From the IMG/VR virus record IMGVR_UViG_2681813421_000010: a stretch of 5,598 nucleotides of DNA; one strand, written 5' to 3'. This stretch comes from a virus. Its lineage: Duplodnaviria; Heunggongvirae; Uroviricota; Caudoviricetes. Made by a program: the position numbers and the translations under genes. This document shows positions 1 through 5,598 of the stretch, in pieces. How positions within the stretch are numbered: position 1 is the first letter of the stretch; each line of letters begins with the position of its first letter. The notes under the pieces are model-generated. The model had not been told where the DNA came from and did no database searches. It saw only the letters and a program-made list of their open reading frames with translations.

Positions 1-267
1 TTACTCTGCAGGTGAAGTCGGCCACTCAATATCAGGTGCGGTTGATGTATCAACACGGTTCAGCAACACCCGATACTTCTTCCAGGCTTCCAGCAACGAG
101 TTTTCTTCCTCCGTTGCGATCTCCAGATCTACAGCATCCTGAAGTGGCGCAATATGCTCACTGAATTCCTGGATGTAGAACTGTGTGGTGACGGTCTTCC
201 AGCCATTCGGCTCCTGCTGTATCGAAGCATACCAGGCTATTTCAATATCGCTATGCTGCGGCAGCAT
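1..267 (-). CDS. Short Tfa-like ORF (88 aa): the C-terminal ~55 aa is a conserved tail fiber assembly protein C-terminus, the N-terminal ~33 aa is unrelated; probably a tfa remnant
   Basis: Minus-strand ORF with ATG at 265-267 and TAA at 1-3. The C-terminal part ([50 protein letters not shown]) matches the conserved C-terminus of enterobacterial prophage Tfa proteins as I recall them. The N-terminal part has no Tfa resemblance and the ORF is less than half normal Tfa length (~190 aa). Confidence 0.6.
20..92. repeat. 73-bp direct repeat, copy A (conserved tfa 3' end)
   Basis: 20..92 matches 1069..1141 (offset 1049) with 2 mismatches (positions 40 vs 1089 and 79 vs 1128); both are synonymous in the minus-strand tfa frame. 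Confidence 0.9.
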
Positions 268-275
268 TTAACCCC

Positions 276-304
276 TTGTAATTCATCGCCATAATTGATT
301 TAAT
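276..304 (+). promoter_or_regulatory. Candidate sigma70 promoter for the methyltransferase gene
   Basis: TTGTAA at 276-281 (-35-like), 17-bp spacer, TTTAAT at 299-304 (-10-like), in the AT-rich 56-bp divergent intergenic region. Sequence match only. Confidence 0.2.
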
Positions 305-323
305 TCATAAACAAAACTATAAC

Positions 324-992
324 ATGGTGAAATTAATGAAAAAAAACACACATGATGGGGCTAAAATTTACACACCACTTACCCTAAAGCTTTATGACTG
401 GTGGGTTTTGGGAGTATCAAATCGTCTTGCATGGGGATGTCCTACAAAGGAACACCTTCTTCCACACTTTCTGGAACATTTAGGTAACAACCATCTGGAT
501 ATTGGTGTTGGAACTGGGTTTTACCTTACTCACGTACCTGAGAGTAGTCTGATATCTTTAATGGATTTGAACGAAGCTAGCCTGAACGCGGCATCTACAA
601 GGGCTGGGGAATCAAAAATTAAACATAAAATTAGCCATGATGTTTTTGAACCTTATCCCGCGGCGTTACATGGTCAATTTGATTCCATTTCCATGTTTTA
701 CCTTCTTCACTGCCTGCCTGGAAATATATCTACAAAAAGCTGTGTAATACGCAATGCTGCGCAGGCCTTAACTGACGATGGAACTCTATACGGAGCCACA
801 ATTCTTGGCGATGGAGTTGTGCACAATAGCTTCGGTCAAAAACTGATGCGCATTTACAATCAGAAAGGCATCTTTTCAAACACAAAAGATTCCGAAGAAG
901 GCTTAACACATATACTCTCAGAGCATTTCGAGAATGTTAAAACCAAGGTTCAAGGTACTGTAGTAATGTTTTCCGCTTCAGGGAAAAAATAG
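324..992 (+). CDS. Class I SAM-dependent methyltransferase (Rossmann fold), prophage moron of unknown substrate
   Basis: 222-aa ORF. Motif I LDIGVGTG (GxGxG SAM-binding loop), acidic residue after beta-2 (LMDLNE), and motif II/III-like segments (FDSISMFYLLHCLP, LTDDGTLYGATI). Alternative start at ATG 336 has a GGTGA Shine-Dalgarno 5 nt upstream. Visibly AT-rich compared with the tail genes. Resembles the methyltransferase-like genes found beside tfa fragments in E. coli K-12 cryptic prophages (ybcY/yfdM type, from memory). Confidence 0.8.
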   Translation: MVKLMKKNTHDGAKIYTPLTLKLYDWWVLGVSNRLAWGCPTKEHLLPHFLEHLGNNHLDIGVGTGFYLTHVPESSLISLMDLNEASLNAASTRAGESKIKHKISHDVFEPYPAALHGQFDSISMFYLLHCLPGNISTKSCVIRNAAQALTDDGTLYGATILGDGVVHNSFGQKLMRIYNQKGIFSNTKDSEEGLTHILSEHFENVKTKVQGTVVMFSASGKK

Positions 993-999
993 CATCCAA

Positions 1000-1032
1000 C
1001 CGCAGCACGTTCTTGCTTAAGACGTGCTGCGG
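1000..1032. terminator. Strong stem-loop between convergent genes (possible bidirectional terminator)
   Basis: Perfect 11-bp inverted repeat CCGCAGCACGT (1000-1010) / ACGTGCTGCGG (1022-1032), with further pairing possible inside the 11-nt spacer. Lies between the methyltransferase stop (992) and the minus-strand tfa remnant stop (1047). A T-run follows on the minus strand only after a ~10-nt gap; no T-tract on the plus strand. Confidence 0.35.
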
Positions 1033-1046
1033 CATAATCCCAATGA

Positions 1047-1139
1047 TTACTCCCTGACAGGGTTCGTAGGCCACTCAATATCAGGTGCAGTTGATGTATC
1101 AACACGGTTCAGCAACACCCGATACTTTTTCCAGGCTTC
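1047..1139 (-). pseudogene. tfa 3' remnant (encodes [30 protein letters not shown]), fused in frame to an invertase fragment
   Basis: My own minus-strand translation of 1139 down to 1047 (stop = reverse complement of 1047-1049). Tfa homology begins exactly at the E-A-W codons. This is copy B of the 73-bp repeat. Confidence 0.7.
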
Positions 1140-1141
1140 CA
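1069..1141. repeat. 73-bp direct repeat, copy B (conserved tfa 3' end)
   Basis: See copy A; 71 of 73 positions identical. Confidence 0.9.
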
Positions 1142-1281
1142 CCACCAGCACGACAAAATGCCGCATACAGTGACCCAGTCAGTCCAGTTTCCAGACAACT
1201 AGTGCGTCACCTTTTTGAAGGCGCTTTAAAGCACGTTTTAATCCAGGTCGGCCTGTCCTTGTTCCGCTTAATTTATCTTCA
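1140..1281 (-). pseudogene. pin: DNA invertase (Pin/Gin/Cin/Hin-family serine recombinase) internal fragment; in-frame TGA; 5' end lost in the N-run, 3' end replaced by tfa
   Basis: Minus-strand translation from the gap edge gives [46 protein letters not shown]. This matches residues ~32-78 of Gin/Pin invertases as I recall them (Gin ...[43 protein letters not shown]...). A TGA sits where Arg (CGx) is expected. The catalytic-Ser N-terminus and the C-terminal helix-turn-helix are absent. Confidence 0.75.
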
Positions 1282-1348
1282 NNNNNNNNNNNNNNNNNNN
1301 NNNNNNNNNNNNNNNNNNNNNNNNNNNNNNNNNNNNNNNNNNNNNNNN
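1282..1348. other. Run of 67 N (assembly gap or masked sequence)
   Basis: Literal n characters. Both flanking genes (invertase fragment on minus, tail fiber on plus) are truncated at the gap edges. Confidence 0.99.
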
Positions 1349-2221
1349 TTCAAATGGAGAAGCCGCCATGGCACCACAACAAAAGACCTGATGAATCTTA
1401 AATGGGGTGCTTTGTATGTTCTTGTTAAAGCCCTTTTCGGCAGTGAAGTAAAAATATCGACAGTCAATGCACTGAGGATTTTTAATTCATCCTTTGGTGC
1501 TATTTTTCGCCGTTCTGAAGAACACCTGCATATCATCCCTACACGAGAAAATGAGGGTGAAAATGGAGATATTGGGCCATTAAGGCCATTCAACATCAAC
1601 TTAAGAACAGGAGTTGTGTCTGTTGGTAATGGTGCCAGGATTGATGGCGGGCTGGCACTTGGCACGAATAACGCGTTGGGTGGGAACTCAATTGTTCTTG
1701 GTGATAATGATACCGGATTTAAACAGAATGGTGATGGTATTCTTGATGTTTACGCTAATAGTCAGCGAGTATTCCGCTTTCAGAATGGAGTGGCTATTGC
1801 TTTTAAAAACATTCAGGCAGGTGATAGTAAAAAATTCTCGCTATCCAGCTCCAACAACTCCACGAAGAACGTAGGGTTTAATTTATGGGGCACTTCATCA
1901 AGACCAACTGTTGCAGAGCTTGGTGATGATTCAGGCTGGCATTTCTATAGTCAGCGAAATACAGATAACTCAGTAACATTTGCTGTTAACGGTCAGATAC
2001 AGCCCAGCAACTGGGGGAATTTTGATTCCCGCTATGTGAAAGATGTTCGCCTGGGTACGCGTGTTGTTCAATTGATGGCGCGTGGTGGTCGTTATGAAAA
2101 AGCCGGACACGCAATTACCGGATTAAGAATCATTGGTGAAGTAGATGGCGATGATGAAGCCATCTTCAGGCCAATACAAAAATACATCAATGGCACATGG
2201 TATAACGTCGTACAGGTGTAA
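1349..2221 (+). CDS. stf: Side tail fiber protein (Stf), C-terminal portion; 5' end missing at the gap
   Basis: Open frame from the gap edge to TAA at 2219-2221. The product (...GVVSVGNGARIDGGLALGTNNALGGNSIVLGDNDTGFKQNGDGILDVYANSQRVFRF...IIGEVDGDDEAIFRPIQKYINGTWYNVVQV) resembles the C-terminal domains of enterobacterial prophage side tail fibers as I recall them. Followed 3 nt later by tfa, the usual stf-tfa pairing. The first in-frame ATG is at 1391, but the gene is most likely 5'-truncated. Confidence 0.75.
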   Translation, partial: FKWRSRHGTTTKDLMNLKWGALYVLVKALFGSEVKISTVNALRIFNSSFGAIFRRSEEHLHIIPTRENEGENGDIGPLRPFNINLRTGVVSVGNGARIDGGLALGTNNALGGNSIVLGDNDTGFKQNGDGILDVYANSQRVFRFQNGVAIAFKNIQAGDSKKFSLSSSNNSTKNVGFNLWGTSSRPTVAELGDDSGWHFYSQRNTDNSVTFAVNGQIQPSNWGNFDSRYVKDVRLGTRVVQLMARGGRYEKAGHAITGLRIIGEVDGDDEAIFRPIQKYINGTWYNVVQV

Positions 2222-2224
2222 TTT

Positions 2225-2698
2225 ATGCAGCATTTAAAAAATATTAAGTCTGGAAATCCAAAAACAAAAGAACAATATCAGCTAACAAAGAATTTTGATG
2301 TTATCTGGTTATGGTCCGAAGACGGTAAAAACTGGTATGAGGAAGTGAAAAACTTTCAGCCAGACACAATAAAGATTGTTTACGATGCAAATAATATTAT
2401 TGTCGCCATCACCAAAGATGCCTCCACGCTTAACCCTGAAGGTTATAGCGTCGTTGAGGTTCCAGATATTACAGCCAACCGCCGCGCTGATGATTCCGGT
2501 AAGTGGATGTTTAGGGACGGAGCTGTGGTTAAACGGATTTATACGGCAGACGAGCAACAACAACAGGCCGAATCACAAAAGGCCGCATTGCTTTCCGAAG
2601 CTGAATCAGTCATCCAACCGCTGGAACGCGCTGTCAGGCTGAATATGGCAACAGACGAGGAACGCACACGACTGGAAGCATGGGAAGGGGGCCCGTGA
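2225..2698 (+). CDS. tfa: Tail fiber assembly protein (Tfa), C-terminally truncated at the conserved LEAW motif (157 aa)
   Basis: Starts MQHLKNIK..., typical of one Tfa family, with AGGTG Shine-Dalgarno 9 nt upstream. Tfa-like through ...[15 protein letters not shown], then ends EGGP* instead of the conserved [21 protein letters not shown] tail, which is found on the opposite strand at 1..92 and 1047..1139. Confidence 0.85.
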
Positions 2699-2753
2699 TG
2701 AAATTCAGGCACAGATGCGCGATGGTGGTCTGTTCTCCGGAGGTGGACGATGA
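2697..2753 (+). pseudogene. 3'-terminal remnant (~18 codons) of the gene upstream of M (tape measure H in lambda order)
   Basis: Frame open from 2643 ends in TGA at 2751-2753, overlapping the M start as ATGA, the classic translational-coupling junction. Encodes ...[18 protein letters not shown]. No long upstream ORF exists in this frame. Assignment to H is by position, not recognised sequence. Confidence 0.35.
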
Positions 2754-3079
2754 AGACCTTCCGCTGGAAAGCGAAACCCGGTATGGATGTGGCTTCGGCC
2801 CCTTCCGTAAGAAAGGTGCGCTTTGGTGATGGCTATTCTCAGCGAGCGCCTGCCGGGCTGAACGCTGACCTGAAAACGTACAGCGTGACGCTGTCTGTCT
2901 CCCGTGAGGAGGCCACGGCGCTGGAGTCGTTTCTGGCTGAGCACGGGGGCTGGAAAGCCTTTCTGTGGACGCCGCCTTATGAGTGGCGGCAGATAAAGGT
3001 GACCTGCGCAAAATGGTCGTCGCGGGTCAGTATGCTGCGTGTTGAGTTCAGCGCAGAGTTTGAACAGGTGGTGAACTGA
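2750..3079 (+). CDS. M: Lambda-like minor tail protein M (109 aa)
   Basis: MKTFRWKAKPGMDV...SAEFEQVVN is near-identical to phage lambda gpM as I recall it. GGAGG Shine-Dalgarno 7 nt upstream. Stop overlaps the L start. Confidence 0.95.
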   Translation: MKTFRWKAKPGMDVASAPSVRKVRFGDGYSQRAPAGLNADLKTYSVTLSVSREEATALESFLAEHGGWKAFLWTPPYEWRQIKVTCAKWSSRVSMLRVEFSAEFEQVVN

Positions 3080-3777
3080 TGCAGGATATCCGGCAGGAAA
3101 CACTGAATGAATGCACCCGTGCGGAGCAGTCGGCCAGCGTGGTGCTCTGGGAAATCGACCTGACAGAGGTCGGTGGAGAACGTTATTTTTTCTGTAATGA
3201 GCAGAACGAAAAAGGTGAGCCGGTCACCTGGCAGGGGCGACAGTATCAGCCGTATCCCATTCAGGGGAGTGGTTTTGAACTGAATGGCAAAGGCACCAGT
3301 ACGCGCCCCACGCTGACGGTTTCTAACCTGTACGGTATGGTCACCGGGATGGCGGAAGATCTGCAGAGTCTGGTCGGCGGAACGGTGGTCCGGCGTAAGG
3401 TTTACGCCCGTTTTCTGGATGCGGTGAACTTCGTCAACGGAAACAGAGACGCCGATCCGGAGCAGGAGGTGATCAGCCGCTGGCGCATCGAGCAGTGCAG
3501 CGAACTGAGCGCAGTCAGTGCCTCTTTTGTACTGTCCACGCCGACGGAAACGGATGGCGCTGTTTTTCCGGGACGTATCATGCTGGCCAACACCTGCACC
3601 TGGACCTATCGCGGTGACGAGTGCGGTTATAGCGGTCCGGCTGTCGCGGATGAATATGACCAGCCGACGTCCGATATCACGAAGGATAAATGCAGCAAAT
3701 GCCTGAGTGGCTGTAAGTTTCGCAATAACGTCGGCAACTTTGGCGGCTTCCTTTCCATTAACAAACTTTCGCAGTAA
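3079..3777 (+). CDS. L: Lambda-like minor tail protein L (232 aa)
   Basis: MQDIRQETLNECTRAEQSASVVLWEIDLTEV... matches lambda gpL; start overlaps the M stop (TGATG); canonical position. Confidence 0.95.
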   Translation: MQDIRQETLNECTRAEQSASVVLWEIDLTEVGGERYFFCNEQNEKGEPVTWQGRQYQPYPIQGSGFELNGKGTSTRPTLTVSNLYGMVTGMAEDLQSLVGGTVVRRKVYARFLDAVNFVNGNRDADPEQEVISRWRIEQCSELSAVSASFVLSTPTETDGAVFPGRIMLANTCTWTYRGDECGYSGPAVADEYDQPTSDITKDKCSKCLSGCKFRNNVGNFGGFLSINKLSQ

Positions 3778-3781
3778 TCCC

Positions 3782-4525
3782 ATGACAGAGACAGAATCAG
3801 CGATCCTGGCGCACGCCCGGCGATGTGCGCCAGCGGAGTCGTGCGGCTTCGTGGTGAGAACGCCGGAGGGGGAAAGATATTTTCCCGGCGTGAATATTTC
3901 CGGTGAGCCGGAGGATTATTTCCGGATGGCTCCGGAGGACTGGCTGCAGGCAGAAATGCAGGGTGAGATTGTGGCGCTGGTCCACAGTCACCCCGGTGGT
4001 CTGCCCTGGCTGAGTGAGGCTGACCGGCGGTTGCAGGTGCAGAGTGATTTGCCGTGGTGGCTGGTCTGCCGGGGGGCGATTCATAAATTCCGCTGTGTGC
4101 CGCATCTCACCGGGCGGCGCTTTGAGCACGGGGTGACGGACTGTTACACGCTGTTCCGGGATGCTTACCATCTGGCGGGGATTGAGATGCCGGATTTTCA
4201 TCGTGAGGATGACTGGTGGCGTAACGGTCAGAATCTCTATCTGGATAATCTGGAGGCCACAGGGCTGTATCAGGTGCCGTTGTCAGCGGCGCAGCCGGGC
4301 GATGTGCTGCTGTGCTGTTTTGGTTCATCGGTGCCGAATCATGCCGCCATTTACTGTGGTGACGGCGAGCTGCTGCACCATATTCCTGAACAACTGAGCA
4401 AACGAGAGAGGTATACCGAAAAATGGCAGCGACGCACACACTCCCTCTGGCGTCACCGGGCATGGCACGCATCTGCCTTTACGGGGATTTACAACGATTT
4501 GGCCGCCGCATCGACCTTCGTGTGA
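3782..4525 (+). CDS. K: Lambda-like tail tip assembly protein K (JAB/MPN + NlpC/P60 two-domain protein), 247 aa from the ATG at 3782
   Basis: JAMM motif HSHPGGLPWLSEAD (H-x-H-x7-S-x2-D) with an upstream ExCG-type segment (APAESCGFVV). C-terminal NlpC/P60 Cys/His segments (TDCYTLF, NHAAIY). Start 3782 is 4 nt after the L stop and keeps the whole JAB domain. An alternative internal start at 3926 (GGAGGA 9 nt upstream) would give the 199-aa product corresponding to the classical lambda annotation. Confidence 0.85.
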   Translation: MTETESAILAHARRCAPAESCGFVVRTPEGERYFPGVNISGEPEDYFRMAPEDWLQAEMQGEIVALVHSHPGGLPWLSEADRRLQVQSDLPWWLVCRGAIHKFRCVPHLTGRRFEHGVTDCYTLFRDAYHLAGIEMPDFHREDDWWRNGQNLYLDNLEATGLYQVPLSAAQPGDVLLCCFGSSVPNHAAIYCGDGELLHHIPEQLSKRERYTEKWQRRTHSLWRHRAWHASAFTGIYNDLAAASTFV

Positions 4526-5094
4526 AAACGGGGGCTGAAGCCATCCGGGCGCTGGCCACACAGCTCCCGGCGTTTCGTCAGAAACTGAGCGATGGCTGGT
4601 ATCAGGTACGGATTGCCGGGCGGGACGTCAGCACGTCCGGGTTGACGGCGCAGTTACATGAGACTCTGCCTGATGGCGCTGTGATTCATATTGTTCCCAG
4701 AGTCGCCGGGGCCAAGTCAGGTGGCGTATTCCAGATTGTCCTGGGAGCAGCCGCCATTGCCGGATCATTCTTTACTGCCGGAGCCACCCTTGCAGCATGG
4801 GGGGCAGCCATTGGGGCCGGTGGTATGACCGGCATCCTGTTTTCTCTCGGTGCCAGTATGGTGCTCGGTGGTGTGGCCCAGATGCTGGCACCGAAAGCCA
4901 GAACTCCCCGTACACAGACAACGGATAACGGCAAACAAAACACCTATTTCTCCTCACTGGATAACATGGTTGCCCAGGGCAATGTTCTGCCCGTTCTGTA
5001 CGGTGAAATGCGCGTGGGATCACGTGTGGTTTCTCAGGAGATCAGCACGGCAGACGAAGGGGACGGTGGTCAGGTTGTGGTGATTGGTCGCTGA
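4423..5094 (+). CDS. I: Lambda-like tail assembly protein I (223 aa)
   Basis: MAATHTLPLASPGMARICLYGDLQRF... with a Gly/Ala-rich hydrophobic middle, matches lambda gpI. Overlaps the K 3' end by 103 nt in a different frame, as in lambda. Confidence 0.9.
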   Translation: MAATHTLPLASPGMARICLYGDLQRFGRRIDLRVKTGAEAIRALATQLPAFRQKLSDGWYQVRIAGRDVSTSGLTAQLHETLPDGAVIHIVPRVAGAKSGGVFQIVLGAAAIAGSFFTAGATLAAWGAAIGAGGMTGILFSLGASMVLGGVAQMLAPKARTPRTQTTDNGKQNTYFSSLDNMVAQGNVLPVLYGEMRVGSRVVSQEISTADEGDGGQVVVIGR

Positions 5095-5112
5095 TGAAAA
5101 ACGTTTTATGTG

Positions 5113-5140
5113 AAACCGCCTCCGGGCGGTTTTATCGTTT
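5113..5140 (+). terminator. Hairpin plus T-rich tail in the I-J intergenic region (possible attenuator)
   Basis: Perfect 8-bp stem AAACCGCC (5113-5120) / GGCGGTTT (5125-5132) with loop TCCG, followed by TATCGTTT. It sits inside an operon, so any termination is expected to be partial. Confidence 0.35.
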
Positions 5141-5155
5141 ATGGAGCATGACGAA

Positions 5156-5598
5156 TGGGTAAAGGCAGCAGTAAGGGGCATACCCCGCGCGAAGCGAAGG
5201 ACAACCTGAAGTCCACGCAGCTGCTGAGTGTGATCGATGCTATCAGCGAAGGGCCGGTTGAAGGTCCGGTGGATGGATTAAAAAGCGTGCTGCTGAACAG
5301 TACGCCGGTGCTGGACAGTGAGGGGAATACCAATATATCCGGCGTCACGGTGGTGTTCCGGGCCGGTGAGCAGGAGCAGACACCGCCGGAGGGATTTGAA
5401 TCCTCCGGCTCCGAGACGGTGCTGGGTACGGAAGTGAAATACGACACGCCGATCACCCGGACCATCACGTCGGCAAACATTGACCGACTGCGTTTTACCT
5501 TCGGCGTGCAGGCACTGGTGGAAACCACCTCAAAGGGGGACAGGAATCCGTCGGAAGTCCGCCTGCTGGTTCAGATCCAGCGTAACGGTGGCTGGGTG
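5156..5598 (+). CDS. J: Lambda-like tail tip/host specificity protein J, N-terminal part (continues beyond the window)
   Basis: MGKGSSKGHTPREAKDNLKSTQLLSVIDAISEGPVEGPVDGLKSVLLNSTPVLD... matches the lambda gpJ N-terminus. GGAG 9 nt upstream. No stop before the window end. Confidence 0.95.

Follow-up and report, generated by a model that had tools for sequence, protein, structure and literature searches.

A clonally inherited joint between tail-fibre assembly and tape-measure genes in a cryptic lambdoid prophage of ETEC O6:H16, probably the scar of an inversion

The stretch of DNA analysed here (5,598 nucleotides, hereafter the window) contains, at positions 2685/2686, a joint at which the tail-fibre assembly gene tfa' runs into the last codons of a lambda-type tape-measure gene, H, directly upstream of gene M. 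We consider it probable that this joint is a genuine, clonally inherited scar of illegitimate recombination in a cryptic lambdoid prophage that resides beside potB and is carried by a small ETEC O6:H16 sublineage, and that it most likely arose by inversion of about 10.3 kb. Its parental sequences can both be recognized, it is absent from all complete genomes searched, and it recurs exactly in an independent assembly. A simple inversion would moreover have created a reciprocal joint, made up of the 5' part of H and the 3' end of tfa', at a distance of about 10 kb.

The window constitutes the terminal 5.6 kb of contig JPXJ01000014.1 (133,169 bp) in assembly GCA_000773555.1 of strain F6097, an Illumina short-read draft. 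The strain is an ETEC of serotype O6:H16, sequenced from a Nextera library on a MiSeq instrument (2x150) and assembled with CLC Genomics Workbench 7.0 (PMC4271155). The layout of the window was derived from a list of open reading frames, reading of the sequence and a Pfam scan of the products. At its left end, adjoining potB, an 88-aa open reading frame (1-267, minus strand) represents a C-terminal tfa fragment that covers positions 75-131 of the Caudo_TAP profile and appears in sister strains as a tail fiber assembly pseudogene without N-terminus. The following gene encodes a class I SAM-dependent methyltransferase of 222 aa (324-992, plus strand; Pfam Methyltransf_12/23/25/11; WP_122996854.1 in sister strains) and sits as cargo between two tfa 3' fragments, the second of which (approximately 1047-1144, minus strand) is likewise a tfa pseudogene in sister strains and is fused to a pin remnant. 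This remnant, part of a truncated serine invertase gene of the pin type (1179-1281, minus strand), enters a scaffolding gap of 67 Ns (1282-1348) that is already part of the record of the F6097 contig deposited at NCBI. The gap replaces 364 bp of L1_E925 including the left gix-like crossover site: window positions 1281 and 1349 correspond to positions 9009 and 9374 of locus L002, in which the crossover site occupies 9150-9188. Coordinates tied to the gap and the crossover sites are 9010-9373 in L002 and 4091-4123 and 7215-7247 in L004.

Beyond the gap lies Sv', the C-terminal variable part of an alternative tail-fibre gene (1349-2221, plus strand), the 5' end of which is missing where it runs into the Ns. 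Sv' shares 99.7% identity with the fibre gene that precedes tfa' in sister strains; its match to Gp34_trimer is weak and stays under the Pfam cut-off. The next gene (2225-2698, plus strand), deposited as WP_052160488.1, was identified by Pfam and alignment as a tail-fibre assembly gene truncated after codon 153 and is designated tfa'-delta. It is followed by H' (2685-2753, plus strand), comprising the last 22 codons and the stop of a lambda-type tape-measure gene. The remainder of the window is occupied, on the plus strand throughout, by M (2750-3079; tail tip assembly protein, 109 aa; Pfam Phage_min_tail at full length), L (3079-3777; minor tail protein, 232 aa; Phage_tail_L), K (3782-4525; tail tip protein, 247 aa; Prok-JAB and NLPC_P60), I (4423-5094; tail assembly protein, 223 aa in the longest open reading frame; Lambda_tail_I), for which gene callers also use a start at 4522 (190 aa), and the first 148 codons of J (5155-5598; FNIII-A_GpJ), with which the contig ends.

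Alignment with the genes of sister strains, including the intact tfa' and H of E8, and blastn against three sister loci agree on the position of the breakpoint: similarity to tfa' extends up to window position 2686 and similarity to the 3' end of H begins at 2685, the microhomology at the joint amounting to two bases (AA). A preliminary description made from the sequence alone had noted an odd junction at this spot with stf-tfa directly upstream of M, and both alignment and blastn bear this out. Some of its details need adjustment. It had tfa cut after LEAW; the gene is indeed truncated, but the cut lies after LEAWE, beyond which three foreign codons (GGP) and a stop are read from H DNA. The resulting open reading frame comprises 157 aa, as compared to 175 aa for intact Tfa', with the C-terminal 22 residues of the 175-aa relative swapped for GGP. 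The product matches Caudo_TAP (PF02413) with 99.9 bits against a cut-off of 22.1 and covers positions 2-107 of the 131 profile positions, thus less than the full length. The remnant of an upstream tail gene was also seen correctly and derives from H, but it counts 22 codons instead of the proposed number of about 18. Where a complete H would precede M (855 aa in ATCC 43896), the window contains this remnant only, which matches the H ends of ATCC 43896 and E8 at 100% identity. The stop of H and the start of M overlap as ATGA at 2750-2753, as had been read before, and the same H/M overlap is annotated in ATCC 43896. Across the H/M boundary, the DNA is 94.6% identical to that of lambda. The preliminary description further let a shift in base composition near 2700 coincide with the junction. 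This does not hold: the GC content is 0.31-0.47 up to about 2400, reaches 0.51-0.54 over 2401-2700, i.e. already inside tfa', and amounts to 0.57-0.62 beyond 2700. The rise is gradual and reflects the normal difference in composition between fibre genes, which are AT-rich, and the GC-rich left arm of lambda; it is not a mark of the joint.

Pfam assignments and the DNA match to lambda identify homologues of M, L, K, I and J in lambda order on one strand. The arrangement thus resembles the H-M-L-K-I-J region of lambda in containing complete M, L, K and I genes, the start of J and the ATGA overlap between H and M; it differs in that a fibre chaperone gene and not the rest of H precedes the H remnant, and in that the lambda-like block is inverted relative to the neighbours that it has in sister strains. 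A scan of positions 1000-5598 for promoters and terminators yielded nothing near the joint and nothing above shuffled expectation. Between I and J, a GC-rich hairpin followed by a T-rich stretch, GAAACCGCCTCCGGGCGGTTTTATCGTTT at 5108-5137, was spotted by eye; it is absent from the list produced by the terminator scan.

The origin of both parental sequences becomes apparent from related strains. From purB to pin', the chromosomal flank agrees with that of L1_E925 at 100% identity over 9009 bp, and in close complete genomes the potB-adjacent locus is occupied by a lambdoid prophage in canonical order. In ATCC 43896, head genes are followed by Z, U, V, G, T, H (855 aa), M, L, K, I, J, lom, a 1029-aa stf, the 3' end of which corresponds to the Sv' sequence, and tfa'. 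Beyond tfa', there are a convergent tfa with a short fibre-tip gene, a 73-aa invertase remnant, a tfa fragment, the methyltransferase gene, a further tfa fragment and potB. A comparison with related strains and an alignment with the 3' ends of H genes had been proposed beforehand: the canonical H-M-L-K-I-J-lom-stf-tfa order exists at the same potB locus, and the H remnant finds its full match there. The sequences to the left and right of the joint match separate parts of one sister-strain prophage at 99.7-100% identity over 1.3-2.9 kb, and because of these matches the joint is not a chance pattern.

In sister strains, inverted 26-bp sites (TTCCTGTAAACCGAGGTATTCGATAA and its partner), which we take to resemble the gix site of Mu, bound a segment of about 3.1 kb with two convergent gene pairs, Sv-tfa and tfa'-Sv'. 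The two orientations of the segment are equally frequent among the 12 closest complete genomes (6 versus 6), a count that compares strains and not cells of one culture. The invertible segments Mu G (Gin), P1 C (Cin) and e14 P (Pin) have the same layout. The likeness extends to the two convergent fibre-tip/chaperone pairs, the inverted 26-bp sites, an adjoining serine invertase gene and the occurrence of both orientations; the differences are that the invertase gene of the sister strains is cut to 64-73 aa and that the arm present in the window is scarred. An intact serine invertase gene was found adjacent to the segment neither in the window, where positions 38-73 of the Pfam Resolvase profile are left, nor in sister strains, where a 'recombinase family protein' of 64 or 73 aa is encoded. 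Flipping of the segment must either be driven by an invertase encoded elsewhere or be older than the truncation of pin.

The window itself contains one fibre-tip/chaperone pair with a truncated chaperone gene; the left site falls into the N gap and the right one beyond the window. To judge from its sequence, this pair is the Sv'-tfa' arm in the orientation beside the invertase remnant, severed from the N-terminal part of the fibre. The stf upstream of tfa that had been described is therefore present as fibre sequence, but only as the C-terminal variable part with its 5' end in the 67-N gap, and instead of an expressed fibre module the pair is the silent alternative arm Sv'-tfa' of an invertible segment of the Mu-G/e14-P type, located beside a truncated pin. 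In F6097, the placement of Sv' beside pin' is due only to CLC scaffolding over the N gap. The contig of GCA_012388215.1 that covers the same region starts about 20 bases from the gap end (window position ~1370), which suggests a repeat boundary near this end, probably common to other invertible fibre segments of the genome.

A 601-bp query spanning the joint was covered by none of 5426 complete E. coli genomes and by none of 50,697 phage records, and exact junction strings of 24-30 bases did not occur in the species representatives of GTDB or in metagenome and viral contigs. None of the phage records has tfa natively followed by M at this level of similarity. The exact junction protein of the window is encoded on one contig only, JPXJ01000014.1. 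This single-contig match first suggested a private event or an artefact, but the junction protein with the allele of the relatives was then found under two further accessions, EFD3088630.1 and EFD3098235.1, on two contigs. The relatives' allele was looked up because tfa' of F6097 differs from that of all relatives by a 4-base patch. This patch at 2313-2317 consists of four substitutions within five bases (TATACA to TGGTCC; YT to WS in Tfa') when F6097 is compared with three sister strains and the other joint-bearing assembly. Elsewhere, the WS allele is frequent in Tfa' proteins that are intact (899 contigs), and the patch goes back either to gene conversion over a short tract, with a paralogous tfa as donor, or to a mixed consensus in the assembly made with CLC.

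The second assembly was reached through the K protein. Its contig AASJQK010000110.1 (GCA_012388215.1, 5224 bp) carries the joint, spans window positions ~1370 to ~6593 as calculated from the coordinates, has ends different from those of the F6097 contig and is identical to window positions 2182-5598 except for the 4-base patch; the match is exact across the joint. This finding bears on the possibility of an assembly chimera, i.e. a fusion of unrelated contigs by the CLC assembler or scaffolder. Such an artefact would be in keeping with a draft assembly that has an N gap 1.3 kb away, with a region full of prophage repeats and with the absence of the joint from the 5426 complete E. coli genomes. 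However, the same joint is present in a separately deposited assembly with different contig ends and a 4-base difference, its junction protein has one more GenBank entry, and an overlap of two bases makes no graph edge without spanning reads. Because spanning reads are thus needed, and because an identical chimera in a second assembly is not credible, we discount a mis-join and regard it as very improbable. The preliminary description had left the choice between a mis-join and a genuine deletion or inversion scar in a defective prophage. The exact recurrence in an independent assembly argues strongly against the former and, together with the canonical order in the sister strains, whose prophages are all defective, sustains the latter. 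The joint is real and common to a small clone.

The contigs of both assemblies cross the joint unbroken, with flanks of 1.3 kb and 2.9-3.9 kb, which speaks against survival of the parental adjacencies in these genomes. This is of importance for another conceivable origin, in which the joint is the novel junction of a duplication. A block of about 10.2 kb reaching from H' to tfa'-delta could have been duplicated in tandem in the other orientation of the segment and later been flipped by an invertase, or it could have been duplicated in inverted form by template switching, with intact tfa' and H being kept in either case. One non-homologous joint would be enough for such an event; in the orientation found in ATCC 43896 tfa' and H reside on the same strand, tfa'-delta followed by H' corresponding to a head-to-tail joint, and the F6097 genome is the largest of its set. 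Yet, duplications are unstable, whereas the joint is common to several assemblies, and parental adjacencies, if kept, should make the assembly graph branch to the left and right of the joint, whereas the contigs of two assemblies pass straight through. We therefore consider a duplication improbable.

An inversion can be formulated on the basis of the sister loci. Window positions 2685-5598 are 100% identical over 2914 bp to H'-M-L-K-I-J of ATCC 43896, on the opposite strand relative to the flank, and positions 1349-2686 are 99.6-99.7% identical to Sv'-tfa' of sister strains. Because of the opposite-strand match of 2685-5598 to ATCC 43896, the block from M to J is inverted with respect to Sv'-tfa'. 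The ancestor would have carried H-M-L-K-I-J-lom-stfN, followed by the 3.1-kb invertible segment (Sv-tfa, tfa'-Sv') and the truncated pin, with the segment in the orientation that places Sv'-tfa' beside pin. Inversion of a stretch of about 10.3 kb, a span calculated from sister-locus coordinates, would have reached from tfa' codon 153 through tfa, stf, lom, J, I, K, L and M to H codon 833. It would have proceeded by non-homologous exchange with a two-base overlap at the joint and would have left Sv'-tfa'-delta abutting H'-M-L-K-I-J. The predicted second joint, between the 5' part of H and the 3' end of tfa' (...GACATGGCCCGTAA joined to CGCTACAGTGTTCTGG...), would lie about 10 kb away and should be recognizable by the string ...GTATGACATGGCCCGTAACGCTACAGTGTTCTGGTCAGCC....

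Of the two joints expected from an inversion, only one is seen, and the window as well as both contigs end within J. The precise reciprocal fusion protein predicted from H of ATCC 43896 (857 aa) was absent from the protein collection, which is a weak test, since it would miss an imprecise joint, a deviating H or a contig broken within H. The preliminary statement that the tape-measure gene and everything 5' of it are missing is accordingly valid for the window only; after an inversion, the rest of H would be situated about 10 kb off in opposite orientation.

One-step inversions with two non-homologous joints are rarer than deletions, and a route in two steps may be considered. The whole late-gene block would first have been inverted via inverted repeats, by homologous or site-specific recombination, bringing H downstream of tfa' in the same orientation; an illegitimate deletion would then have removed the 3' end of tfa', the head genes and most of H. 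The loss of the tape measure would then be real, as originally described. Deletions with an overlap of few bases are the commonest decay events, and there are many at this locus; the failure to find the predicted reciprocal fusion in the protein collection points in the same direction, and an unforked contig through the joint is equally compatible with this route. On the other side, the required intermediate is present in no relative, no suitable inverted repeat is found between tfa' and tfa, whose spacer measures 28 bp, and two events are invoked where one suffices. Simple inversion and deletion after inversion both fit the data. We prefer the single inversion because no relative shows the intermediate and because a suitable repeat between tfa' and tfa is lacking, and hold the two-step route to be possible but rather unlikely.

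As an invertible segment bounded by gix-like sites, which has evidently been flipped in this lineage, lies right beside the joint, and as the two-base overlap equals the size of an invertase crossover core, an invertase of the Pin/Gin/Cin type acting at quasi crossover sites in tfa' and H also came into consideration. The 26-bp contexts of the breakpoints match the local sites at only 5-9 of 26 positions, however, against a background with a median of 8 and a 99th percentile of 13, and the core of the real sites is GA but AA at the joint. With site scores at background level and a mismatching core, this origin was rejected and is hardly conceivable.

A single inversion by illegitimate recombination, our preferred reading, would have struck a prophage that was decaying in any case. 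The prophage is defective in every strain seen. Its terminase gene lacks the N-terminal part in ATCC 43896, where it abuts an IS66-family element, L1_E925 has suffered a deletion from the peptidase gene to J, and E8 contains a truncated H and L-J fusions. Further lesions were found in many draft loci sharing the same M and K proteins (L005-L034): an 824-aa product in the position of H with a faint match to Minor_tail_Z in Pfam, possibly a Z-H fusion, a 626-aa H, L-J fusions and a split L; another draft locus has lost the genes that separate the Phage_attach (FII-type) gene from K. These draft loci form a natural series of decay states of one prophage. Because nearly every related strain has a different deletion, decay by illegitimate recombination appears as the normal fate of the locus. 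Rac, Qin, e14 and DLP12 of strain K-12 and the defective lambdoid prophages of O157 are well-known examples of cryptic prophage decay, and like the locus studied here they show deletions, fusions and rearrangements that differ between strains and have joints of little or no homology. The sole oddity of the lesion in F6097 is that it is of the inversion type and not a plain deletion. The event is of a known kind and the breakpoint an ordinary one.

We infer that the joint is without function; in a prophage already defective, it cuts short both a silent chaperone gene and the gene for the tape measure. Its biological weight is small, and it serves as an illustration of cryptic prophage decay and as a clonal marker that is specific to one small ETEC O6:H16 sublineage. 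WP_052160488.1, annotated as a tail fiber assembly protein, is in reality a truncated fusion product. The case also demonstrates that odd joints in short-read drafts can be checked without access to the reads by seeking the exact fusion protein in independent assemblies.

One consequence would follow from the inversion model only. If the inversion was simple, the right crossover site would have been flipped with it, leaving the two gix-like sites in direct repeat at a distance of about 10 kb, and the fibre switch would be locked; invertases of the Din type act poorly on direct repeats. The expressed fibre would then be fixed as stfN-Sv-tfa in one block with M-J. Such a natural lock of a fibre-switching module in one ETEC clone is a speculative idea of low probability.

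Some minor features were observed to the left of the gap. Two direct copies of the tfa 3' end with 95% identity (17-95 and 1066-1144) flank the gene for the SAM-dependent methyltransferase (324-992). The methyltransferase-containing remnant is widespread: at least 80% of window positions 1-1281 are present in 2726 of the 5426 complete genomes. A Chi sequence, GCTGGTGG, at 1142-1149 on the minus strand coincides precisely with an older joint, that of the invertase remnant with the second tfa fragment. Any significance of Chi at this place was dismissed, as it is a single match in 5.6 kb and 46 of 200 shuffles contain at least one, which is within chance. The older joint between pin' and the tfa fragment, like that at 2685/2686, is located at the 'EAW' codons of tfa.
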